A program made the translations under genes and the position numbers. Below the pieces are notes generated by a model. That model ran no database searches and had not been told where the DNA came from. It was given only the letters and a program-made list of their open reading frames with translations. Below, piece after piece: positions 17,248 to 30,421 of a stretch of 64,000 nt of DNA. The DNA comes from Longimicrobiales bacterium (GTDB lineage: Bacteria > Gemmatimonadota > Gemmatimonadetes > Longimicrobiales > Gaopeijiaceae): the NCBI GenBank assembly GCA_965204735.1, contig OZ242008.1:4076499-4140498 (forward strand), read 5' to 3'. Each line of letters opens with the position of its first letter. Within the stretch, counting starts at the first letter, position 1.

Positions 17248-17420
17248 CTACAGGCGCGCCTTGATCCTCTGCGCCAGTGCATCGAAATCGTCCGGGCATT
17301 TCTGCGGATCACCTGGATGTTTCTCGCAGCTTCTCTGCCCAGGAGCTTGCGCCCGCCCCCTGGGTAGTCGGTCAATGTCGTTCGCGCACCAACGGTACAA
17401 AGTATCTCTCCTTGACGTGG
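17248..17420 (-). pseudogene. Frameshifted C-terminal remnant of a partner gene of the upstream ATPase
   Basis: Three successive frames join as EVHVKERYFVPLVRER / TLTDYPGGGRKLLGREAARNIQVIR / QKCPDDFDALAQRIKARL*. No N-terminal part is present. Confidence 0.45.
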
Positions 17421-18730
17421 ACTTCTGTCCCCGCTTCCCGCTCGCTTGCACCTTCCCCCAAGAAGACTGCGTCTTCCATCCATCCAGAAGCGTGTAGCGT
17501 GCCCAGTCCTTGCGATTCTCGAAGCTCTCTTGCGTTGGAAAGCTCTGCGACTTGACGGATGACTGCATCGCCCGTGTCCGGTCGCCGACACACGACGGCA
17601 GTGTTCTTGAACGTCTGATTGTTGACCATGGCCAGCAACTCCGGCGAGTGCGTCGTGGTCACGACCTGGGATTCACTCTCGGCAGTCCAGGTTTCGATGA
17701 GCTCCAGCAGAAGACGCAAGCGGGACGGGTGAACGCCGTTGTCGATCTCCTCAAAGAAATACAGGTCCGCCTGATCCCTCCCGAACAAGGCGGCCAGGAT
17801 GGCCAGAAAGCGCAACATCCCGTCTGACGCGGAGTAGGCAGAGATGTGTCGGCCGCTTCGCTCCGTTATGCGCAACTGCACCTTGCCGCTCACGGGGTCC
17901 CTCGGGAACTCGAAGTCAGCCACGTCCATCGGCGTCAATTCTCTGCTCCAGTCGACCAATGCGCCTCGGCGATCGGAGTCGTCGCAGATATCCTTCAGCA
18001 CAGTCGGCAAGTTGTCGCCCCGGTCTCCGAGCGTCGTCTGTCCAGGCAAGGATGGTATGCGCATACGAGTCGGCGACGGGTCGAGGAAGCGCATGCTGGC
18101 GAACGAGTCGGCGACCACTTGCGCTTGTGTCTTGTGCAAGCGCAATGCCTTCTTGTGTTCGTGCATCTGCGTCAAGGCCGGTTGATCCGGCCTGGCTTCG
18201 ATTCGATGCCCATATTTCCTCTGCTTCGCAGTCTTTGCCATGCGCAACAGCAAGTGCATCTCGTCGTCTTGCTTCCGTACCGGGTCGGGAGGGGGCGGAT
18301 GACTGTTGTAGACGAAACGCTTCCTGTGCTGGAGAGATTCCTCTGTGACGCGAAACGACCCGGAAGCCTCTTTGCTGCGTATCTTGTACGTGACCTTGCT
18401 CTGCGTCGAGTTCGCGATGCCTGTCGGCAACTGCATCTCCACTTCGAGGGCGAATCCGTTCTCTCCGGCCTCTCCGTCTTGTTCGATCCGCACGACCTCG
18501 CCTAGCGCGCCTCGAATCCCGTCCCACTGGACTTCGCCGCCAGGACCGTACTTGCCGCCAAGAATCTCCGCCAGCGTGTAGCCCCGTCCGAGGCCGTGGA
18601 GGAAACGCAGTGCTTCGCGGATGTTGCTCTTTCCGCTGCCGTTGGTGCCGGCGATGACGGTGAACGGACCCATGCGCAGCCGCTCGTCGGCAAAGCTCTT
18701 GAAGTCCAACAGCCTGATGGACGTGATCAT
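17372..18730 (-). CDS. ABC-type (AAA_21-like) ATPase, defence-associated
   Basis: LDFKSF, GTNGSGKSN, signature SASDGMLR, Walker B FFEEIDNGVHP, H-loop TTHSP. Confidence 0.88.
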   Translation of the reverse strand: MITSIRLLDFKSFADERLRMGPFTVIAGTNGSGKSNIREALRFLHGLGRGYTLAEILGGKYGPGGEVQWDGIRGALGEVVRIEQDGEAGENGFALEVEMQLPTGIANSTQSKVTYKIRSKEASGSFRVTEESLQHRKRFVYNSHPPPPDPVRKQDDEMHLLLRMAKTAKQRKYGHRIEARPDQPALTQMHEHKKALRLHKTQAQVVADSFASMRFLDPSPTRMRIPSLPGQTTLGDRGDNLPTVLKDICDDSDRRGALVDWSRELTPMDVADFEFPRDPVSGKVQLRITERSGRHISAYSASDGMLRFLAILAALFGRDQADLYFFEEIDNGVHPSRLRLLLELIETWTAESESQVVTTTHSPELLAMVNNQTFKNTAVVCRRPDTGDAVIRQVAELSNARELRESQGLGTLHASGWMEDAVFLGEGASEREAGTEVHVKERYFVPLVRERH

Positions 18731-19105
18731 GGGGGTGCCGTCTCTGTGCCGATGGACGTCACGTGATCACGGGGCATCTGGGTCCGGGGCCGGATGCCGG
18801 GCCAACGTGGCAAACACCCAGCAGGGACCAGGGCTTGGGCGCAGCAAGTCGTCCATCGGGAGCGGTAGTCATGATGCTCAACAGTAATTGAGCAGTTGCG
18901 GGAAGGCCACCGCCAAGGTTGCCGGCGTCTCCGCGATCGGCGGCGTCTCTGCGATCGGCAGGGGGGAACTTCGGTCAGCTGGCACTGCCCAGTCACCCCA
19001 ACCGGGCCAGTTGCAGCCTCGTCCGGGTCGAACCCTGAAGCCCGAATCGACTGTTGTTCTGGCGACTCGAGGAGTGCGGTGTCCAGGCTCTTGACTTGAC
19101 AGGAC

Positions 19106-19136
19106 TTGACATTCTGTCGCTGTCCTGCGATACATT
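19106..19136 (+). promoter_or_regulatory. Putative sigma70 promoter (TTGACA...TACATT) of the four-gene operon
   Basis: Perfect TTGACA at 19106 and TACATT at 19131 (19-nt spacer, suboptimal). Predicted +1 falls near ATG 19143. CTTGAC occurs three times in 19090-19110. Confidence 0.45.
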
Positions 19137-19142
19137 AGTATT

Positions 19143-20505
19143 ATGCTCCTTCCTGCCCCCCCCCCCCCCCCCCCCGAGAATTGAGGGAGGCCGTCTTCCG
19201 GCCATAGGGCGTCCGCCCTCCGGTAGCCAAACGGCTGCCCGCAACGAGGTCGGCGTTCGGGAGATATCCGCTCGCGCCGAGGAGCACGAACACCTTCCCC
19301 ACATCGTCAAGTTCTCCGGGGGACGGTCGTCGGCCGCACTGGCGTTTCTGCTGGCCGAGTCGGGGCTGCTACGGCCCGAGCGGGGCGACGCGATTCTTTT
19401 CGCGAACACGTCAGCGGAGCACCCGGCCACCTACGAGTTCGCCCGGGAGTGCAAGCGCAGCCTCGAGCACGACTTCGGCATCCCGTTCTTCTGGTTCGAG
19501 TTCTGCACGGTGGAGGACGCCTCGCGGGGCGTCTACGTCCGCCGTCCGTCGTACCGACTTGTGCTGCCCGAGCCGGTGGAAGACGATCCCCGTGGCTTCT
19601 GCTCCCGAGGCGAAGTCTTCGAGGAGATGCTTTCCTATCAGGGGATGCTTCCCAACCCTCACAGCCGCTCCTGCACGGCCAAGCTGAAGCTGTATCCGTC
19701 GCACCAGCTTCTGGCCGAATGGCTGGGGGTCACGGACGGCCCCGCCCACGCCGGCCACTGGGGAAGACGTCGCTTCGTCACCCCCGACACGGCCTTGGTC
19801 CAGTACCGTCGGAACCGGGGCGCGGCTTCTGACGACGTGTACCGGGAGCGGGTGCGCTGCATGACGAATCGTCCGCACGCGCGCTCGGCCCAGCGTTGGG
19901 ACGAGTACACGGAAGCGCCGGTGCTGGCGTTCGGGGAGCGCATTCACGCTGCCGACCGTCCCGCGGGCCCCGCCCCAATGTGGGGACCAGCCGCCGCCGG
20001 CCACGTCACGCTGCTGGGCCTTCGCGCCGACGAGCAGAAGCGCATCGACAAGATCGAGTCCCGCTCGGTCTTTGCCGAAGGGGCCAGCACATCCTGCTCC
20101 ATCCACACCCAACCGCCGGGCGAGCATCCGATCTTCCCGCTGGCGGAGTGGGGCATCGACGCCACGGACGTTCGCTGCTTCTGGCTGGGACGCGACTTCG
20201 ACCTCCGCATTCCCGAGCACGCGGGCAACTGCGTCTTCTGCTTCATGAAGGGCACCCGGTCGCTGGCGGCTGCGGCGGCTCGGCCCGACCCCGATCGGGA
20301 GGCCGGTGCGCCGTCCGACATCGCCTGGTGGAGCCGGATGGAGGAGCGCTACCGCAGGCAGGTTGCCGCCCGTGACGGCGACGGCACGTCCAGCTTCGGC
20401 TTCTTCGGCCTGAGCGGCCCCACCTTCGCCGAGATCGCCGCGGGCGCCGCGCCGGACCTGGGCCGGTACGCCGTCGGCGCCCCCGCCTGCGACTGCACCG
20501 ACTAA
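19143..20505 (+). CDS. NinC-like / PAPS-reductase-family PP-loop enzyme (ATG 19143 is out of frame at C20)
   Basis: KFSGGRSS, ANTSAEHPATYEF, CTAKLKLYP, LGLRADE, FDLRIPEHAGNCVFCFMK and CDCTD resemble lambda NinC motifs as recalled (SFSGGRTS, DTGCEHP, IGIRADE, GNCIFC). Confidence 0.82.
19156..19175 (+). repeat. C20 homopolymer in the 5' end of the NinC-like gene
   Basis: 20 consecutive C counted directly. Confidence 0.95.
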
Positions 20506-20525: not shown

Positions 20526-22460
20526 GTGAAGACCATGCAAGACGACCTCGTATTCCAGTCCGGCCAGCCCCAAGGATTCTCGACCCTTACCACGACTCAG
20601 TGGGACGGCAAGCCGGAGCCGATCGTCCGCGAACTCCTTCAGAACTGTCTGGACGCCGCCGCAGAGATTGATGTCGAACAGGCGGAGGTGGACTTTGACA
20701 TTCGCCAAGTTCCGCTCGACCAACTCCCGGGGATCGGATCGTACCGCAATCACTTCGAAGAAGCGGTAGCCCAACGCCAGGCGGAGACCCAGGGCAGAGC
20801 CGAGAAGAGGGTCATCGATCGCATCCGGCGGATCCTGGACAAGGAAACCGTCCGCTTACTCGTGTGCCGGGACAACGGCGTGGGACTCGATCGCGACCGG
20901 ATGCGGCGCATCCTGACGCAAGGAAACACCAGCAAAGACGAGGGCGGGGCCGGCGCGTTCGGCATCGGCCACCTGACGGCTTTCGCAGGGTCGGACTTGC
21001 GGTACGTGCTTTATGCTGGCCGATGGGGAGACGACGACGGCGAGTTGCACGAGATCGCAAGTGGTCATGCGATCCTGGCCTCGCGCGCTCTCTGCAACGG
21101 CGAAGGTGGTCTCGGGGGCGACGGCTTCTGGTTGCACGGGGAGGAAGCCACGCTCTTCCATCAGTCCCCCTATCCAGACCGGGCGCCGCCCCTGCTGCAA
21201 GAGGAACTGGGGCGGATGACTGACACGGGCAGCGTCGTGTGCATCACCGGATTCAACAACTTTCGGAGCGAGGCCGATCCGGTGCAAGCGATCGCCCAAG
21301 TCGCGGCCAAGAACTTCCTGGTGGCGATCTGGGAAGGGAAGATGGTCGTGCGCGTGCGCGGCGAGAACGAGGCCGAGACCGTAGTAGTGACGCGCGACAC
21401 GTTGGGAGATATCCTCGAGCAGGAGAAGAGCAAGAAGCGCGGTGCCCAGACGGGCCGCTGGCTCCCGGGCGCCCAGGCCTACCAAGCGTGGCAGACGTTG
21501 AGAGACGGCGTGCCTTTCAAGCTGCGCGACGGCACGCCAGTCCGCATTCGGCTGCCGGAGGCTCGCAAGCGCAGGCCGGAGTCGCGGGCTCAGATCTTTC
21601 GGAACGGCATGTGGATCACAAACAGCGCCGACGCACTGGAGCCCCGACACTTCAGAACCTGCAAACCTTTTGCCGCGGTCGTCATGGTGGCCGACGGCAG
21701 GTTGGCGGAGCTGGTGCGTGATGCCGAAGGCCCGGAGCACCGCCATCTGGAGCGCAGCCGCCTCTCGCGACAAGACAGTCTCGAGCTGCTGGAGCGGCTC
21801 AGGGAGATCGCGGCCGAGCTGCGACAGCAGGCTGGCGAAGAGGAGGTCGACGACGAGTTCACGCCGGAGGGCTTCGTCATGCTTTCGGGTGATGTGGAAC
21901 GGAAGGCGGAGAAGGTGCCCAGCTACCGTCCACGAGAAGGCCCGGGCCAGAACCGTGTCACCGTGTCGAGTCGAAGCAACAAGGAAGAGGACGGAGTGGA
22001 CCGCCGGGAAAAGAGCGGCGAGGAGAAAGGCAGGCGCAGGCAGGGGGCGGCGCCCCGGCAGGGCAGAGCCGTTCCGGGCCGGCTGGCGTACCGAGCGTCG
22101 CGGAACGGGGCAGGAACAGTCGATACCGTCAAGGTCGAGTGGAACCATCAGGGGAGCGCCCTGTCGGTAAAGGACCTGCTGGGCGTCCGCGTCAGGGTGC
22201 CGTCCGGTTCCGACCAGACCTGCGAGCAACCTCTGGGGCCCGAGTGGGTCCCCATTCGCGAGGTTCGCTTCGAGGATGGCACAACCCACCTGCCCAAGGA
22301 CGACAACCCGTTCGAAGTGGCGCTGCCCAACACCGCTCGCAAGTTTGTCGTCTTCCTCGACACGAAAAGGCCGCTTGACGATCCCAACGTCGTTGAGGTG
22401 GACATCGTGCGCCGACGCAGCGACTCGAAGGCACGTTCGGCCGCCTCGTCGGTCGAGTAG
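20526..22460 (+). CDS. Protein with N-terminal GHKL (HATPase) ATPase domain
   Basis: N-box RELLQNCLDA, G1 DNGVGL, TSK, G2 GAFGIG, TG in TGSVVCI. Charged linker and unknown C-terminal domain. Confidence 0.78.
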   Translation: MKTMQDDLVFQSGQPQGFSTLTTTQWDGKPEPIVRELLQNCLDAAAEIDVEQAEVDFDIRQVPLDQLPGIGSYRNHFEEAVAQRQAETQGRAEKRVIDRIRRILDKETVRLLVCRDNGVGLDRDRMRRILTQGNTSKDEGGAGAFGIGHLTAFAGSDLRYVLYAGRWGDDDGELHEIASGHAILASRALCNGEGGLGGDGFWLHGEEATLFHQSPYPDRAPPLLQEELGRMTDTGSVVCITGFNNFRSEADPVQAIAQVAAKNFLVAIWEGKMVVRVRGENEAETVVVTRDTLGDILEQEKSKKRGAQTGRWLPGAQAYQAWQTLRDGVPFKLRDGTPVRIRLPEARKRRPESRAQIFRNGMWITNSADALEPRHFRTCKPFAAVVMVADGRLAELVRDAEGPEHRHLERSRLSRQDSLELLERLREIAAELRQQAGEEEVDDEFTPEGFVMLSGDVERKAEKVPSYRPREGPGQNRVTVSSRSNKEEDGVDRREKSGEEKGRRRQGAAPRQGRAVPGRLAYRASRNGAGTVDTVKVEWNHQGSALSVKDLLGVRVRVPSGSDQTCEQPLGPEWVPIREVRFEDGTTHLPKDDNPFEVALPNTARKFVVFLDTKRPLDDPNVVEVDIVRRRSDSKARSAASSVE

Positions 22461-23302
22461 TGCCCCGCCGCCCCGTGAGCAACGCGACTGCGCACCAGCT
22501 GCCGATCCTCTTGGAAAGCGGGTCCCGGTACGACTGGTCGAGCGCGAGCTACGATCCCGACGTGTCGGTCGGCACCAACCGAGCGACGGTTCAGCACCAA
22601 ATGGACGGGGCACCGGCCTTGCGCAGGCTGATTGAAGACGAAAAGGCGGTTTGGGCCGTTGAATTGCGATGCCCCAAGACCCTCATGGCTCGCGTGGAGA
22701 CATCGTCCGCCGATCGCCAAGTCGTCTCTTGGTCCTCCGAAGAAGTAGACGGCGTGGTTTGGATCGTGCCGGGGCTGATTGCGCTGAACCCCCTCTCGCT
22801 CGACGGATCGGGCCTGACGTCGCTGTGGGCCGATGCGGGCGACCTCCGGGTACCGGCAGGTTGGTGGCTGGCCAAGGGCGATGCGTACCGTTCCAAGACA
22901 CTCACTGAATCTCTGGTCAAGCTTCGTCGCGACAAGGACATGGCCAAGGGCACCATGGAGGTGCGTCCTGACCACAGCGGTGGACGCCTGCGGTTCGCAG
23001 TGCACATGGCGCCGGACGTGTTCGAGAAGGCAAGATCGGACAGGACGTTGCAAGTGGCGGCTCTGGTCGGAGTCTGCGGCTGGTTCCCTCGCGAGTTCGG
23101 CAGGGTCGCAGAGTCGCAGTCCGGTTCCGGCACCAACGATGCACGCGACGACCACCCTGTGGCCCGTGAGCTCAGGGAGCGATTGCGGCGCAAGAACCAA
23201 GACGTGTCGTTGTGGGACGACGACGAGAGCTACGACCCGGCCTTGGTGGCCACCTTACTGGAGCCCTTCGATTTCAAGGAAGAGCATGACGAAGAAGATT
23301 GA
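22460..23302 (+). CDS. Hypothetical protein (gene 3 of operon)
   Basis: 280-aa globular-looking ORF; the start overlaps the gene 2 stop. Confidence 0.75.
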   Translation: MPRRPVSNATAHQLPILLESGSRYDWSSASYDPDVSVGTNRATVQHQMDGAPALRRLIEDEKAVWAVELRCPKTLMARVETSSADRQVVSWSSEEVDGVVWIVPGLIALNPLSLDGSGLTSLWADAGDLRVPAGWWLAKGDAYRSKTLTESLVKLRRDKDMAKGTMEVRPDHSGGRLRFAVHMAPDVFEKARSDRTLQVAALVGVCGWFPREFGRVAESQSGSGTNDARDDHPVARELRERLRRKNQDVSLWDDDESYDPALVATLLEPFDFKEEHDEED

Positions 23303-24155
23303 CCGACTGGTCGACAAGTGCGGCACGGCCTTCAGCAGGTGGCAGAGCCGAATCATCTTCGACCAAAGGAAGCACGGAAAGCCTACCGAAAGTCGCAACC
23401 GCGAGATCGTCGATAAGGTCAGGGACCGGCAAGAGGCACTGGCATCCGAAGTCGGAAACGGGCCTCAGCAGTTGGGTGCCTACCTTCGTCGTGTCTTGAA
23501 GCTGGGTGTGGGCGACGAGATCGACGCACTTCCCTTTCCACGCGATTGCCTTACCCCCAGCGAATTCGTCAAGCCCCCCGTCGAGCTTGAGGAGGAGCTT
23601 GGCAAGTCATGGCAGAAGTTGCCTCCGCGGCTGGCGTCCCGGCCCGTGTTCTGGCTTCTCTGCCATGTCGCGTGGATCGAGCAGGGTCGTTTAGGCGACT
23701 CTGGCCACTTGGTCCGCGCTGCGTTGATGGACGACCCTCGCGCCAGGGACTCGGAAGCGCGAACCCGCAATCTCCTGCGACGGACCGGGGGCATTTTCGT
23801 CCGAGGCAATGTGTCCGTTTTCTCCAACTGTCCGATGGCCCGGGCGTGGTGGCGCTGGTACTTGGCGCGTCAAGTGGCGGAGGTCACGAAAGGCAGGGTC
23901 GGTCGCGCCGACGCTCATGCAACGTTGCACGCGAGCAATGGGGCATGGGAGGAGCTGGCCATGCTCTCGCTCCGGCGGATCACAGTCGTCAATCAACGTC
24001 GGGCACGGGCGGCCGTGGTGAGCCGGCTGCATGCGCTACTAGGCCAGCACGGGAAGCTGAACAAGAACCACGTAAAGGAGGTCGCGGTCGAGTTCGCCCG
24101 TGTTGGGCTGCGCCGCTCCTTTGAGCATACGTCCTGGGATGAACTGATGGGCTAA
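23286..24155 (+). CDS. Hypothetical helical protein (gene 4; possibly distant DUF6339-like)
   Basis: Overlaps gene 3 by 17 nt with an AAGGA RBS. PVFWLLCH and MARAWWR recall the W-rich RLWW motif of DUF6339 (unverified). Confidence 0.7.
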   Translation: MTKKIDRLVDKCGTAFSRWQSRIIFDQRKHGKPTESRNREIVDKVRDRQEALASEVGNGPQQLGAYLRRVLKLGVGDEIDALPFPRDCLTPSEFVKPPVELEEELGKSWQKLPPRLASRPVFWLLCHVAWIEQGRLGDSGHLVRAALMDDPRARDSEARTRNLLRRTGGIFVRGNVSVFSNCPMARAWWRWYLARQVAEVTKGRVGRADAHATLHASNGAWEELAMLSLRRITVVNQRRARAAVVSRLHALLGQHGKLNKNHVKEVAVEFARVGLRRSFEHTSWDELMG

Positions 24156-24268: not shown

Positions 24269-25720
24269 TTAGCCCCTCACGGGTTTGACGCCGCCCCGCC
24301 GTCCCAGGCCGTAACCGACTCTGAACACGTCGGGAATGTTGACGCGACCGTCAAGCAATCGCTGAAATATGCTTAACGCCTCCAAATCGTCACGTAGGCC
24401 TTGAGCACCGCGCTCGATCTGACGTGGTGTCGCCTTGACCGCATCCTGTGCCGTGTCGTCGCCCAAACGCGATAGTACGTCTCGCTCCCGCCAGCGCTTC
24501 TCAATCTCCTCGAAAGAACAGGGCACTACCATGCCATCCAAGGTCATCAAGAGGCGGTGCACCCACGGATAGTCCTCCTGGAATTCCTCCACACGAATCC
24601 TGGAAGCCTCCTGAACACCAAGTTTGATGCTGTCAAAATGTAGAGCATAGTCGTGTTCCGGGTGCCTCTCGCGAGTATTGCCGGCTGCGGTCCTTAGGGC
24701 GGCAAGGAACGAACGAGGGCTTACCTTGCCTTCCGCATCTGCCAAGTGATTGGGTATCCACGTGTACGGGAATCCCCGTCGACGGTCTCTGCCCATCCAT
24801 GGTCCCGCGAGCTGATGAAAGATGGTGCGCTGTGTCTGCTCGGCAAAGACAAGCTGCCTTGGCACGGCGAAGACGGTTTGCCCCTGCAGATCCAACGACG
24901 CCCAGTGCTCCTTAGTCAGCAGAGGTCGCATCGCGGACCCGGTGGGACCATTGGCCAGCGAGTGCCAGAGGAGCCCGTACAGTTCGTTGGGCGGCCAGTT
25001 CAATTCCGCACGCGATGACAGTATCTTTGACGCATCTGGGAAGTCGGCGATGCTGGTCTCCTCAACTTGATCCGTCCGCAAGAACGCCTTTACTCTGATT
25101 CGCCTGTACGAACGCATGTCCGACGCAAGCTGCATCAGTCCTCGGATCAACCGGTACATGTCCTGCCAGCTGTCGGCGCATCGATCCAGGGCGTCGAACA
25201 GTATCAACAGGTATGTCCCGCGACTGTCTAGTTCAACGTCTCGTTTGTCCAACATGACGTCAATCTCTTCGGGTTGTCGCTTAACGTACTCGCATCGTTC
25301 CTGCCAGCTACGTGCTCGTCGCAACGGGTCCGATTCTGCGGACAAGTGCCGTGCAAGCACCGTTCGCCAAACAAGTCGCGGAGCGATGTCGGCCGCCAAC
25401 AGGTTCGCCAATACGTCCTTGCTAGGATAATCGTCGGGTGCTGCGCTGACGCCGAATCCCACTGTCACCTCGGTGGCATCAGTTAGGCGCGACTTCTCGC
25501 TCTTTCCCACAAGAAGACGGACACTGCTGTCTTGCAGTGCTTGCCACCAAAACGTCTTGCCCGCGCCCCGCATGCCAACCACAACGGAAACGTCCGGGTC
25601 CATCGCCTTGAGGTGAGACCGAGGCAGGTAGACGTTGGCGACCGGCAAGGTGGTATCGCCATGAGATGTACCCTCTGGAAGGCCGACAAGGGCCTGGCGC
25701 AAAGCCTGGGCTCGGGTCAT
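24269..25720 (-). CDS. P-loop NTPase (STAND-like) of a three-gene module
   Basis: Walker A GMRGAGKT, Walker B LILFDALD, FLRTD, SPRSFL. ATGA-coupled to the upstream gene. Confidence 0.8.
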   Translation of the reverse strand: MTRAQALRQALVGLPEGTSHGDTTLPVANVYLPRSHLKAMDPDVSVVVGMRGAGKTFWWQALQDSSVRLLVGKSEKSRLTDATEVTVGFGVSAAPDDYPSKDVLANLLAADIAPRLVWRTVLARHLSAESDPLRRARSWQERCEYVKRQPEEIDVMLDKRDVELDSRGTYLLILFDALDRCADSWQDMYRLIRGLMQLASDMRSYRRIRVKAFLRTDQVEETSIADFPDASKILSSRAELNWPPNELYGLLWHSLANGPTGSAMRPLLTKEHWASLDLQGQTVFAVPRQLVFAEQTQRTIFHQLAGPWMGRDRRRGFPYTWIPNHLADAEGKVSPRSFLAALRTAAGNTRERHPEHDYALHFDSIKLGVQEASRIRVEEFQEDYPWVHRLLMTLDGMVVPCSFEEIEKRWRERDVLSRLGDDTAQDAVKATPRQIERGAQGLRDDLEALSIFQRLLDGRVNIPDVFRVGYGLGRRGGVKPVRG

Positions 25721-26985
25721 CGGGTCGCCGCCGGACGAAGATAGCTGTCAAACGATCGCAGGAAGGCGGAGTACGCAAGCGTCACGGGGGCAGCGTCGAT
25801 CCTGTGCAGCGAAGAACCGGCGGCCAAGCCTCGATTCCAGTGAATTGCGAGGGGGCTATGAGGGGCAGGAGACTCCCGCAGGTCAAAAGAAAAGGCGTCG
25901 TTAGGAAACGACGGTTCCACCCCGTCGTACAGGTAGTCGCGAAACAAGTGCCAAGAACGCTCAGTAAACCTCGCAAGGTATTGATCTGTGCCGGTCTCTG
26001 GCGTTAGAGCTGACACGATGGACAGTCGGTCTCTCATCTTTTCTGCGAGACGGTGATCGCGCCAATGCGAAAAAACCATCTCGAAGGTGCTCCAAGTGCT
26101 TGCAGAATCGGTGGCGAACAGCATGACATGAGCACCGACGTCGGTGACCGTGGCGGCCGCAAGATCGTGTAGGCCGCTACGGCTCTCGATAACCACGATG
26201 CTTGGTTGCCATGCTTCCTCGAGCGACGTGATCACGCGGTCGAGCCGCTCGGTCCATGGCAACCCCGTGTTGAGATACACTCGGCCGAGCTTTGCCAGGT
26301 ATTCGCCGGGGCGACGTCCGTGGGCGGGCACCACGGCAACCGAGCCTTCAAGGTCTTGGGCCCAGGTCGGCGTTCCCACCATGCGGTCCAAGACATGAGC
26401 GGCCTGGCCAACCAAGTCCTCCACGAACCAGTCTACGATTCCGAACTGGGGATGGGCGCCTTGGTCCAAGACCGTCGAGCCCAAACCCGGCGACTCGACG
26501 TCCGCATCCACGACCAGGACCCGTTCTCCTTGGTGGGCCAAGTGCCAGGCGAGAACCACAGCCGTGGTGCTCCTTCCCACCCCGCCGTTGACCGAGAACA
26601 GCGTGTAGCGGATTCGTCGCGACGCTGGCGCATTGACCGTCTGCCATCCGTTACCAGTGATCATGCGATCAACCCAAAACATGCACCCCGACATCCTCCT
26701 CGCGGAGGAACCAAGCAAGGTGGATGCGGGTGTGTCGAGGATCAGCAAGGAAGCGTCGGGTGGATGACCATGGGCGCCCAGTTCACGACTAAGGCGCGTG
26801 GCCAACTCCGCCAACGCTCCCTGGACCGAGTCGCTGGCCGGTTCGTCAGCGATGATCCGGACCCTGCCATAGAGGTCGCGAACGAGGTAGACGTCGATTC
26901 CCTGAAGTGGAGTCAGGTCCATGGACGCCAGAATCGTTTCGACTCGCTGGTATACGCTGTCGAACCTGATGAAGTCTCCTCTCAT
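25717..26985 (-). CDS. ParA/MinD-like ATPase (KGGVGR-variant family; NGGVGRST here)
   Basis: FSVNGGVGRSTT, VLVVDADVESPGL, ESRSGLHD, plus an N-terminal VRDLYGRVR domain. Confidence 0.82.
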   Translation of the reverse strand: MRGDFIRFDSVYQRVETILASMDLTPLQGIDVYLVRDLYGRVRIIADEPASDSVQGALAELATRLSRELGAHGHPPDASLLILDTPASTLLGSSARRMSGCMFWVDRMITGNGWQTVNAPASRRIRYTLFSVNGGVGRSTTAVVLAWHLAHQGERVLVVDADVESPGLGSTVLDQGAHPQFGIVDWFVEDLVGQAAHVLDRMVGTPTWAQDLEGSVAVVPAHGRRPGEYLAKLGRVYLNTGLPWTERLDRVITSLEEAWQPSIVVIESRSGLHDLAAATVTDVGAHVMLFATDSASTWSTFEMVFSHWRDHRLAEKMRDRLSIVSALTPETGTDQYLARFTERSWHLFRDYLYDGVEPSFPNDAFSFDLRESPAPHSPLAIHWNRGLAAGSSLHRIDAAPVTLAYSAFLRSFDSYLRPAATR

Positions 26986-27425
26986 ACGATGCCGTCCACT
27001 TCCGCGAGGCGCATGATGCGGACGACTTCTCGGGTCGCCTTCTGGTACCGGCTTACCTCCTCTGGGCCGACATGGCCGCGGTTGGCGTAGCGATCATGGT
27101 GCGACCAATCGTGGAACGGATTCCCAGGGGCGAGGCCGTACCTTGCTCCGAACTGGTCGCTGGCAAGGTCCGCAAAGAGTGGCCAGATCGCTTGGATGTG
27201 TTGGCGGTGTTTACGTTCCCGAGGTGTGCCCATGGCATCCAAGGGCATCCACTTGAGCACCTGCATCGCGGCTTTCAGCCCGCACTCCGCGCTGAACCCA
27301 AGGAGATACGCAGCGTTGGCCCACCTGTCGTGGTCGCAGAGAAGGTTGCCGTCTTCCCAATGTCGCTGGTGGGCGTCCACGAAGTCGGCGGGTTGCTCGG
27401 CGCGGTTCGGGTTCGATCTGATCAC
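26982..27425 (-). CDS. HEPN-domain protein
   Basis: DAHQRHWEDG...WANAAYLLGFSAECGLKA...H...WSHHDRY. GTG start with AGGAGG RBS; ATGA coupling downstream. Confidence 0.72.
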   Translation of the reverse strand: MIRSNPNRAEQPADFVDAHQRHWEDGNLLCDHDRWANAAYLLGFSAECGLKAAMQVLKWMPLDAMGTPRERKHRQHIQAIWPLFADLASDQFGARYGLAPGNPFHDWSHHDRYANRGHVGPEEVSRYQKATREVVRIMRLAEVDGIV

Positions 27426-27536
27426 TGCGGCCCTCCTGCATCTGTCTGTCGTCTTTGTCTGTCGTCGCCACATGACCGGGCCCGGTCGCAAGCTGCCACC
27501 GCTCTTCCCGCAACTTCGGCCCGTTCGAGCCCCGAG

Positions 27537-27669: not shown

Positions 27670-28236
27670 TCATTGCGCGTCAAGCTCGGGTATCCAGCGT
27701 TTGTGCACTAGCGTGGTGATTGCGATGCGAATCTGCCGTTCTGTAAACTGGTGCTTGCGTGGACTCCAAGCGTGCGTGCGGCGGAGCGTGTCCACTACCG
27801 ATGTGACACGTTCTCTGTCAACCACCCAGTGCACCGTCGACAACAACTCCAAGCCAAAGGACGATTCGAAACCCTCCACAAGATCGGACACCCGCAAGAA
27901 ACGGGCCTGCGTATCTGGATACTGGCCAAGAAACACACGAGCATCTTCAACCGCACCGGGCACCAAGTCCATTCGCTTGTGCGGGGCATCGCTTCCGTCG
28001 GCATACCCCGACACAAGATGCTCTTCCACAGCGTTAAGGACATGTCGCAAGTTGTCGGCATATGGTCCATAGTGTCCCTTCCTGAATCTCAAGCGCAGTG
28101 GCTCGCCAGCAATTTGCATAAAATACATCAACTTGTGCACCTCCAACAATGTAATATACGGATCCAATAGCGCTTGATTGTAGCGATGCATCAATTGAAC
28201 CAGGACCGCTCTAGATTGGTTGGTTGGCTGGATCAT
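27670..28236 (-). pseudogene. darG: C-terminal domain of DarG-type antitoxin, macrodomain missing
   Basis: ITLLEVHKLMYFMQ...GHYGPYADNLRHVL...VEGFESSFGLELLSTVHWV...WSPRK. No macrodomain and no darT. Confidence 0.7.
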
Positions 28237-28521
28237 GGACCGGTCCTGGTAGGGGGGCGGATGTCCGAAGGAGCGTCCTGAACGATAGCCTCCGTCGTTC
28301 GTCGGTGCAACCGGGCTTGACCGGGCCTCGCGGATATCCTCTTGGGACGGCCACATCTTCCAGGGCTCGTACGATTCGGTGGACATGTTACCGGGCGTTC
28401 CTGGATGTGTGGTCGCTTCGCACACTTCTGGCTCTTGACGAAGCGGTGGCGCGAGCCCCTTGGGCTGCCGTCCGCATGGATCAAGTACGCTGCGTCTTCA
28501 TCCCAAGCCGGAGGAGACGCG

Positions 28522-28676: not shown

Positions 28677-28858
28677 GGTGGTCAGGCCTCCGTCTCATCG
28701 CCCCTCGCGGTGTTCGCGCAGGTACTGGAACCGCCCGTCGCCGAGGTCTTCCGCCGGACACCGGGGAACAGCCTCGACACGCTAATCTTCCGTTCTTCTC
28801 TCCTCGACAGCATTATCTTGGGATTGTTCTCCCCAGCAGCGGTGAGACGACAGCCAAA

Positions 28859-30421
28859 ATGGCCAAAACTCCAGCCAACCAATCGCTAGGGCCTTCGGCT
28901 CAAGAATCGGCTGCCGCGACGCCCGTGAAGGCCGCCGCGACGCTGGCCGCGGCGCCCGAGGCGTTCGTGTCCACGACGGCGATCAGCCGCGCCGTCTCGC
29001 GGGCCGTGCGGGGCGGCAAGCTACGGAAGATCGGCTCCCGCCTCTACACCAGCAACTTGGTGGACCCGGCCGAAGTCGTGGTGCGGCGCAACCTCTGGGG
29101 GATCGTCGCGGGATACTTCCCAGGCGCAGTGGTGGCCGACCGCACGGCGTTCGAGATCGGCCCAGCCCCGGACGGCTCCGTCTGCATTGCGGCCGCGCGG
29201 GGGCGCGAGATCGAGCTGCCCGGAGTCGTCCTCCGTCCTCGCCGAGGGGCGGGGCCGGTCGAGCTGGACCAGCCGTTCATGACCGGACTTCACCTGAGCT
29301 CCCGGGCGCGGGCGTTCTTGGAGAACATGCGGCCCAGCCGGGCACGGGGCGGGCGCGTGTCGCGAACCCTGTCCCGGCGCGAGATCGAAGAACGCCTGGA
29401 CGCCGTGACCTCGTTGTCGGGCGAAGCGGCGGTCAATCGGCTGCGCGAACAAGTGCGGATCGTGGCGACGGCACTGGACATGCGCGACGAGGCGGCAGCG
29501 CTGGACGCCTTGATCGGCGCGCTCCTGGGAACCCGGTCAGCCCGGCTGTCCTCCCCCGCGGCCCAGGCACGCGCGAGAGGTCGTCCTTTCGACTCCGGCC
29601 GGGTCGCCCTCTTCGAGACGCTGGATCGCGCGCTCCGCGACTACCCGCCCCGAACTGTTCCCGCCCCGCCCCGCGACACTGCCGGCCGCAAGACTCTGGC
29701 CTTCTTCGAGGCGTACTTCTCGAACTTCATTGAAGGCACCGAGTTCAGCATCGAAGAAGCCGCCGGAATCGTCTTTGACGGCAATGTCCCAGCGGAGCGA
29801 CCGGCGGACGCCCACGACGTGACGGGCACCTGGCGCCTGGTGTCCGACGACGCCGAGATGGCCCGGACCCCGGACAGCTTTCGCGACCTTGAAGCGCTGC
29901 TCCAGTCGCGCCACCGAACGATCATGGGCGGGCGGCCCGACACGCGCCCCGGCGAGTTCAAGTCCGTCTCCAACCGAGCCGGGGCGACGGTGTTCGTGGA
30001 CCCCGCATTGGTGCGCGGCACGCTGGAGCAGGGCTTCGGACATTGGCGGAGTCTCGAGACGCCCTTTCAGCGCGCCGTCTTCGCGATGTTCCTCGTGACC
30101 GAGGTCCACCCCTTCGCGGACGGCAACGGACGAGTGGCCCGCATCATGATGAACACGGAGCTGGTGGCCGGCGGCGAACACCGCATCCTGGTGCCCACGG
30201 TCTTCCGCGCCAACTACGTCGCCGCGCTCCGAGCCCTGTCGCGAACGGGACGCCCTGAGCCGCTGGTCCAAGTGATGGACTACGCCCGCCGATGGACCGC
30301 CCAGGTCCCGTGGCGCTCGCTGGACGAAACGCGCCGCGAACTCGAGCAGTGCCACGCATTCCTGGACGCGGAAGACGCCGAAGCCGAGGGGAAGCGCTTG
30401 AGGATGCCTGCGGCTTCTTGA
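28859..30421 (+). CDS. Fic-domain protein with N-terminal extension
   Basis: Canonical Fic motif HPFADGNGRVAR; FFEAYFSNFIEGT. Confidence 0.92.
   Translation: MAKTPANQSLGPSAQESAAATPVKAAATLAAAPEAFVSTTAISRAVSRAVRGGKLRKIGSRLYTSNLVDPAEVVVRRNLWGIVAGYFPGAVVADRTAFEIGPAPDGSVCIAAARGREIELPGVVLRPRRGAGPVELDQPFMTGLHLSSRARAFLENMRPSRARGGRVSRTLSRREIEERLDAVTSLSGEAAVNRLREQVRIVATALDMRDEAAALDALIGALLGTRSARLSSPAAQARARGRPFDSGRVALFETLDRALRDYPPRTVPAPPRDTAGRKTLAFFEAYFSNFIEGTEFSIEEAAGIVFDGNVPAERPADAHDVTGTWRLVSDDAEMARTPDSFRDLEALLQSRHRTIMGGRPDTRPGEFKSVSNRAGATVFVDPALVRGTLEQGFGHWRSLETPFQRAVFAMFLVTEVHPFADGNGRVARIMMNTELVAGGEHRILVPTVFRANYVAALRALSRTGRPEPLVQVMDYARRWTAQVPWRSLDETRRELEQCHAFLDAEDAEAEGKRLRMPAAS

Follow-up and report, generated by a model that had tools for sequence, protein, structure and literature searches.

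The window, by which we mean the whole stretch of 64,000 nucleotides analysed here, sits at the end of a genome assembled as a single contig of 4.14 Mb (G000), and the labelled sequencing runs that contain the stretch are sponge or marine metagenomes. MAGs of Longimicrobiales (Gemmatimonadota) are its closest named relatives. Its forward strand carries an operon of four genes. Gene 1 (19143..20505) encodes an enzyme of the PP-loop type (PAPS-reductase fold) in which the cysteine motifs RxCT, NCxxC and, at the C-terminus, CDCTD are invariant; gene 2 (20526..22460) encodes a GHKL/HSP90-type ATPase with invariant ExxQNxxDA, DxGxG and GxxGxG motifs, distantly related to PDC-M33A (PADLOC, E 6.9e-32); gene 3 (22460..23302) encodes a 280-aa protein distantly related to PDC-M33B (PADLOC, E 1.6e-4 here and 3.5e-10 in a sister-clade copy); and gene 4 (23286..24155) encodes a predicted all-helical protein distantly related to DUF6339 and PDC-M33C. 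The last assignment comes from 59 aligned homologues, among which DUF6339 matches five (best E 3.5e-9) and PDC-M33C three, the PDC-M33C model giving no match to gene 4 in the window itself; all PDC-M33 matches are given without PADLOC's own thresholds. At an E value of 0.001, Pfam returned no match for genes 1 to 4.

The structure model of gene 1 aligns with PAPS reductase at Z 11.6 (rmsd 3.7, 178 aligned), a match tied with GMP synthase and APS reductase. At the sequence level gene 1 falls below every curated family cut-off, and no NCBIfam DndC model is listed; it matches SspD weakly (E 1e-10), BrxP at 0.075 (PADLOC) and the phage PAPS-reductase family phrog_424 at 1.3e-28. Phage PAPS-reductase-like proteins are also its top viral fold matches, and the viral contigs and phage records searched hold no close relative of it. 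The sequence-only reading had called the enzyme NinC-like; the label is a usable family pointer, as the phrog_424 match indicates, but it misses the context, in which gene 1 would be the sulfur-transfer enzyme of a four-gene operon of DNA-modification type. For gene 2, sacsin and HSP90 models match under their cut-offs and weak HSP90/MutL matches occur among solved structures, a sequence search of which gave nothing credible for genes 1, 3 and 4. Gene 3 falls with unnamed Atlas clusters at 0.96, the Atlas search yielding nothing beyond unnamed or low-scoring clusters, and the gene 4 model, at pLDDT 95, has no fold match above Z 5.

The operon has defence-island neighbors at 17372-18730, 24269-27491, 27670-28425 and 28850-30421; the island follows ahcY and contains a PDC-M07A-like ATPase, PDC-M28ABC, a DarG C-terminal part and a Fic protein. 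An isolated fragment of gene 4 (64% identical over 142 aa) lies elsewhere in the genome, at G000:C1:3724471-3724896, beside transposase-like sequence.

The C20 tract and the start of gene 1

Between ATG 19143 and the PP-loop of gene 1 lies a homopolymer of exactly 20 C (19156..19175, forward strand) with a G on either side, as the sequence-only reading had claimed and a count of the letters bears out. The tract provides poly-proline codons in an N-terminal arm that is modelled as disordered (pLDDT below 50 over residues 15 to 38), and because of its position ahead of the PP-loop, its length sets the reading frame. In this assembly gene 1 is frameshifted at the tract: translation from ATG 19143 through C20 yields MLLPAPPPPPPEN*, a product of 13 aa closed by the TGA at 19182..19184, whereas C19 and C22 open frames of 453 and 454 aa, as had been proposed. 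C21 gives 21 aa only, the frame that it shares with C18 being closed by the TAG at 19205..19207, so that lengths of the form 3n+1 are ON. The further claim that no canonical restart separates the tract from the SGGRSS motif (encoded from 19315) likewise stands, the first in-frame ATG, GTG or TTG being GTG 19510, a start at which would yield 331 aa without that motif.

ATG 19143 (19143..19145) is the best-supported start codon of gene 1, because relatives without the tract open with in-frame MLLPA: in a related 20-member cluster, 12 of the 15 proteins listed run from this start into the enzyme with no proline run. TTATG stands ahead of the tract in G000 and in the congeners G002 and G003, and the ON allele P0133 reads MLLPA, nine prolines and RIEGG, which would correspond to C28 if every proline codon belongs to the run. 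Given this start and these relatives, C20 would be the OFF length, and C19 and C22 would be ON.

It could be argued that translation begins instead at an upstream TTG, which would make C20 ON, or at a non-canonical codon past the tract, the tract then merely tuning expression. TTG 19054 and TTG 19096 are in frame with the enzyme at C20 (giving 483 and 469 aa, a point left implicit in the earlier reading), G003 has an in-frame TTG too, and ATT 19180 and ATA 19204 are in frame past the tract, the ATA 13 nt after a GGGAGG. We nevertheless consider such starts highly improbable for several reasons: (i) TTG 19096 and the TTG of G003 belong to TTGAC promoter-like hexamers, the former being the beginning of a TTGACA at 19096-19101 (forward strand); (ii) G002 has neither an in-frame TTG nor an in-frame GTG upstream; (iii) the tract-free relatives begin with MLLPA; and (iv) even with a TTG start the tract remains a frameshift switch.

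A second TTGACA on the forward strand (19106..19111) is a candidate -35-like element, GGACTTGAC being present also in G003, and TACATT (19131..19136), 19 nt after it and 6 nt before the ATG, is a candidate -10-like element of a leaderless promoter, with CGATACATTA in G003 and no counterpart in G002. A leaderless mRNA had been suggested previously; the layout of TTGAC, 19 nt, TACATT, 6 nt and ATG is kept in the one congener but absent in the other, and a leaderless gene 1 transcript beginning at ATG 19143 is plausible on these motifs. A consensus promoter scan, which covered spacers of 16 to 18 nt only, returned 0 sites. In this genome TANNNT is eight times commoner ahead of early than of late ATGs (66/2341 versus 40/11364). 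The case for leaderless starts as a general trait of the gene 1 family is weak, TANNNT preceding 3 of 32 ATGs against a background of 1.5%.

Evidence for probable slipped-strand phase variation

This genome has 168 G/C runs of length 7, 15 of length 8 and one of length 9, yet 27 runs have lengths of 12 to 36, compared with about 0.001 expected at lengths of at least 12 from a geometric extrapolation. Loss of mismatch repair as the cause of the tracts was ruled out, since mutS and mutL are intact. Presence of the tract in orthologs had been named earlier as a way to check the idea of a switch, and at the DNA level two congeners carry it at the same site, as C17 in G002 and C19 in G003. In a 90%-identity cluster of 23 members, 15 of them listed, three of the listed proteins read through from the ATG, four are in the phase of the window (one being this genome), seven are truncated calls of 330-331 aa and one has another start; these alleles are known as proteins and not as DNA, and the seven truncated calls may be contig breaks. 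Proline runs among the listed members are 4 to 9 long at the protein level, and P0123, P0128 and P0133 are ON alleles that use the same ATG. The MLLPA relatives, the ON and OFF alleles in near-identical proteins, the tract in two congeners and the repeated tracts elsewhere in the operon (see below) all favor the phase variation first proposed from the sequence, and the C20 tract is in all probability a slipped-strand switch, one that would be reversible.

The three genomes with the 5' tract (G000, G002 and G003) share one OFF phase, which could have its source in leak or in assembly bias. In the former case C20 would not be fully OFF: +1 ribosomal frameshifting on CCC codons, which are known +1 shift sites, or slippage on the transcript would turn the tract into a dimmer or a programmed recoding site, and the finding that this tract is one base longer than an ON length in 3/3 genomes fits such a device. 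Same-ATG ON alleles exist, however, and the tracts found at other sites of the operon consist of G and occur in all three phases, which makes a leaky C20 very unlikely in our view. As for the latter case, long G/C runs are error-prone and the length of 20 may be off by one. Contigs from three of the four runs examined (X1, X2 and X3) end at the tract and none of the four bridges 19144-19183, which is weak evidence, as short reads also fail at long G/C runs; in addition, 18 of the 24 internal tracts in the orthologs are out of frame, as might be expected of plain gene decay. On the other hand, the tract occupies one site in three species, tracts are concentrated in genes 1 and 2 with one per operon and occur in short-read-type contigs as well, and the frame beyond the tract stays open for about 170 to 540 codons in the 21 loci tested; an assembly artefact or decay is thus an extremely unlikely account.

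If the phase-variation reading is correct, replication slippage would add or drop C's in the tract, translation from ATG 19143 would reach the enzyme at C19, C22, C25 and C28 and would otherwise halt after 13 to 21 residues, and a population would be a mixture of ON and OFF cells. Such switching may let a host-bound symbiont hold modified and unmodified subpopulations, either as a hedge against phage or to avoid cost.

Tracts across orthologous operons

In the ortholog set, the best 80 of 104 related loci, genes 1, 2, 3 and 4 are present in 80, 78, 76 and 73 loci, respectively, and no fifth conserved gene appears across the 80 neighborhoods. The loci belong to Gemmatimonadota, Chloroflexota, Acidobacteriota and Actinomycetota, with single loci from Verrucomicrobiota and Pseudomonadota. 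A G/C run of at least 10 lies in the operon, taken from 300 nt upstream of gene 1 to the end of gene 4, in 37 of these 80 loci, one apiece; the density of runs is 9.4 per 100 kb in the operon versus 1.4 in the flanks (about sevenfold, contig-end runs excluded), and 0 operons have two runs, compared with about 6 expected under a Poisson model. Genes 3 and 4 contain no run of at least 10 in any of the 80 loci.

Of the 37 runs, 24 are internal, at five sites, and one precedes gene 2; the remaining twelve are found at the 5' end of gene 1 or upstream of it, three of these at a distance of 130-260 nt. The run sites overall are the gene 1 5' end, gene 1 residues ~210-240, 282 and 435, the gene 2 5' end, and gene 2 residues ~105 and 415. 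The internal tracts are in frame in six cases and out of frame in 10 and 8, a distribution close to thirds (chi-square p 0.6, the loci being related, so that p-values overstate). Stops follow soon after the tracts in both OFF frames, with medians of 2 and 13 codons versus 11 and 48 (21 tracts). The three tracts near gene 1 residue 435 would cut off only the last ~20 residues, CDCTD included. Eight of the 37 tract loci are on contigs with short-read assembler names, and the JGI metagenomes contributed 12 loci, one of them with a tract.

Since kin are not independent, we count differing tract positions as separate origins; the number of origins rests on these positions and not on the gene-1 tree, a quick version over 156 columns from which 12 rows were dropped (11 for motif mismatch and 1 as short) and whose backbone is poorly supported. 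Judged in this way from the sequences, the operon switches have evidently arisen repeatedly. The restriction to a single switch per operon, in every case on gene 1 or gene 2, suggests that the four genes function together and that cells survive in the OFF state, which in turn would make genes 3 and 4 unlikely to be free-standing killers. To our knowledge, phase variation by G/C tracts is known mostly from pathogens; here the same switch logic recurs at differing positions in sponge-dwelling symbionts from four phyla.

Two further features of the orthologous loci are recorded. Upstream of gene 1, the G003 locus (L013:7082-7706) has three tandem units of ~305 bp, in each of which G16-18 separates GGAATTC from a CATGG. 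The operon is duplicated, in stacked or partial form, in L036, L057 and L164, L036 holding both clades side by side and L164 repeated blocks of genes 2, 3 and 4.

Proposed function of the operon

A sister clade, for which we took the best 80 of 91 loci, has a gene 1 that is 40% identical to that of the window over its full length, and all three cysteine motifs are present in 74/74 intact sister-clade gene 1 proteins. Directly after gene 1 in 70 of the 80 loci stands a cysteine desulfurase (DndA/IscS-type), followed by the same three genes; in the clade of the window a desulfurase directly after gene 1 is found in 0/80 loci. The sister-clade desulfurase matches DndA and SspA at E ~1e-137, and its scores are higher with the IscS and NifS models than with those of DndA, all of them under the cut-offs. 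The genome studied here has a stand-alone IscS-like desulfurase homologue (E 1e-87). Tracts are far commoner in the desulfurase-less clade, with 37/80 loci versus 6/80 in the sister clade.

Several observations bear on a link between the operon and DNA. DUF262 genes lie nearby in 24/80 sister-clade and 10/80 own-clade loci and PbeA-like genes in 6/80 of each, PbeA/PbeC-like genes recurring around the operons. Three distant gene 1 homologues carry fused C5 methylase domains, and a cassette of GHKL, X, DUF6339 and C5 methylase genes with a distantly related core is present in this genome (L091, G000:C1:90281-95600) and in L192, the sole orthologue found; just after the ATG of the GHKL gene, the former has a C18 (out of frame) and the latter a C27. 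No C5 methylase adjoins the gene-1 operons in 172 loci with the query used. A short distant homologue of gene 1 on a Bosea plasmid (from sponge) lies between thymidylate synthase and dihydrofolate reductase genes (L193:7111-9286), a context that points to nucleotide chemistry in that branch.

On balance, we favor the view that the four-gene operon is a candidate DNA sulfur-modification system with a GHKL ATPase, and hold the switch and sulfur on DNA, taken together, to be somewhat more probable than otherwise. Gene 1 would be the chemistry subunit: ATP bound at its PP-loop would activate the DNA target, and its conserved cysteines would deliver sulfur taken from a cysteine desulfurase, which the sister clade encodes within the operon and for which the stand-alone IscS-like gene presumably serves here. 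The DNA-engaging part would consist of the GHKL ATPase and the products of genes 3 and 4, and could alternatively be paired with a cytosine methylase. Sulfur transfer, DNA as the target and a role in defence are what we infer from motifs and gene neighbors.

More tentatively, the operon may represent a further kind of DNA phosphorothioation system, with sulfur in the backbone, that is driven by a GHKL ATPase and not by a P-loop NTPase. It is possible, to about the same extent, that such a system is widespread in sponge symbionts of many phyla, that its core pairs with a sulfur-transfer enzyme in some cases and with a cytosine methylase in others, and that the desulfurase-less clade repeatedly gained one switch per operon.

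The switch could also be real and the chemistry another, which we regard as rather unlikely: sulfur or some other group might be placed on a DNA base, a tRNA, a protein or a small molecule, or the desulfurase might only build an Fe-S cluster on gene 1. This explanation draws on several lines of reasoning: (i) the fold neighbors of gene 1 include the tRNA thiolases NcsA and TtuA together with LarE and QueC/Cap9, and the fold is common to non-sulfur enzymes; (ii) the desulfurase is inseparable from IscS/NifS and could thus serve Fe-S assembly alone; (iii) the Bosea homologue stands in a thymidylate context; and (iv) the operon has no P-loop NTPase or known nickase, a P-loop NTPase being what the published neighborhood search demanded (PMC12914056). 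The interchange and fusion with C5 DNA methylases and the DUF262 and PbeA/PbeC neighbors, by contrast, point to DNA, backbone and base being left unseparated by this evidence.

Relation to known systems

The candidate system has several features in common with Dnd, Ssp and BREX type 4 (PMC12914056, PMC10853773, PMC12839542): an enzyme predicted to have the PAPS-reductase fold and carrying additional cysteines, a cysteine desulfurase (linked or stand-in), an ATPase, interchange with methylases, and neighbors of the DUF262 and Pbe kinds. The desulfurase, which Dnd and Ssp have linked or supplied by IscS, is linked in 70/80 sister-clade loci and stand-alone in G000. Methylases are described as standing in for phosphorothioation on the Dnd core, a precedent for the swap of sulfur and methylase here (PMC10853773). 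In contrast to Dnd, the ATPase is of the GHKL and not the P-loop type, the DndD ABC ATPase and DndE are absent, and no Dnd model matches any of the four genes; in contrast to Ssp and BREX type 4, the operon is without SspB (DUF4007), SspC, BrxC and PglZ, and genes 2 to 4 match no Ssp or Brx model. Gene 1 is nearer to phage PAPS-reductase-like proteins than to DndC or SspD, although it differs from the phrog_424 phage family in being longer, chromosomal and operonic. By these comparisons of gene content the operon resembles phosphorothioation systems but belongs to none of Dnd, Ssp and BREX type 4. PMC12914056 gives four established phosphorothioation systems and a search for them that required a P-loop NTPase, by which a GHKL system would have been passed over; a GHKL-driven route, and a switchable one, would be added to these four if sulfur is placed on DNA.

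Genes 2 to 4 are distant homologues of A, B and C of PDC-M33, in A-B-C order and with weak scores for B and C; unlike PDC-M33, which has three models, the operon is headed by a PP-loop gene and in the sister clade has a desulfurase in addition. The PDC set is described in bioRxiv 2024.01.29.577857, the main text of which does not name M33. On the favored reading the candidate PDC-M33 would have a defined role, namely to act as a core for the recruitment of different DNA-marking enzymes. The literature searched, which comprised non-subscription papers without supplements, yielded nothing on PDC-M33, DUF6339, the combination of GHKL, PAPS reductase and desulfurase, or phase variation in sponge symbionts, and the main texts of PMC10853773, PMC12839542 and PMC12914056 contain neither GHKL nor HSP90. 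The operon is apparently undescribed.

As regards the switch, it is very likely that a known mechanism, homopolymer phase variation, acts here on a new target operon. The Pgl system of Streptomyces coelicolor (BREX type 2) undergoes phase variation at a G-tract in pglX (PMC4365076); as there, a homopolymer in the modification gene would toggle a defence-type operon of several genes here. In contrast to Pgl, the switched gene here encodes a cysteine-rich PP-loop enzyme and not an adenine methyltransferase, Pgl/BREX core genes are missing, and the tracts occupy many sites in four phyla. Phasevarions are DNA methyltransferases switched by repeats, and the likeness lies in slippage on a likely DNA-modifying enzyme and in genome-wide G/C tracts on surface, glycosylation and restriction-modification genes (PMC12707154). 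Here, on the other hand, the candidate mark is sulfur and not methyl and the host is an uncultured sponge-associated member of Gemmatimonadota; if the reading holds, the system would amount to a phase-variable sulfur epigenome.

Other long G/C runs in the genome and its relatives

Runs of at least 12 in this genome sit on typical contingency targets, namely giant ORFs, PMT-type glycosyltransferase-like genes, restriction-modification genes and Cas3. Twelve of the 16 coding-like ORFs of at least 3000 aa (up to 13,587 codons, surface-protein-like) have C16-C33 on the coding strand at the 5' end, in both phases, at G000:C1:24254, 1448582, 1530078, 1548510, 2146061, 2198275, 2247295, 2299010, 2339180, 2418535, 2606898 and 2986029; judged by tract placement, these ORFs appear to be a genome-wide switchable set. 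Tandem PMT-type glycosyltransferase-like genes at G000:C1:969393 and 973310 carry C19 (out of frame) and C14 (in frame) after MPMP.

A C18 splits a type IIG (MmeI/Eco57I-like) gene, a C13 lies in frame in an Mrr-helicase-methylase gene, another C13 is at the 5' end of the Cas3 gene of a GSU0053-type CRISPR locus, and a run of 36 bases precedes a gene for a type I restriction subunit (G000:C1:2687460 and 3424558; 2079705; 439642). Five runs of at least 12 whose C strand ends in G (G000:C1:95304, 439642, 2687460, 3424558 and 4095654) are all at restriction-modification-type genes, a pattern recognized post hoc; of the remaining 22, the C strand ends in T in 20 and in A in two. Runs of 36, 33 and 15 at G000:C1:1237406, 1448582 and 3620537 adjoin promoter-like hexamers or AT-rich stretches, which suggests that these may be promoter-level switches. 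Among the relatives G001-G060, C/G runs of at least 12 number 6, 27 and 46 in the three congeners and 0-3 in most other members of the family or order; G007 and G022 reach 35-37, and G052, which is fragmented, has 176.
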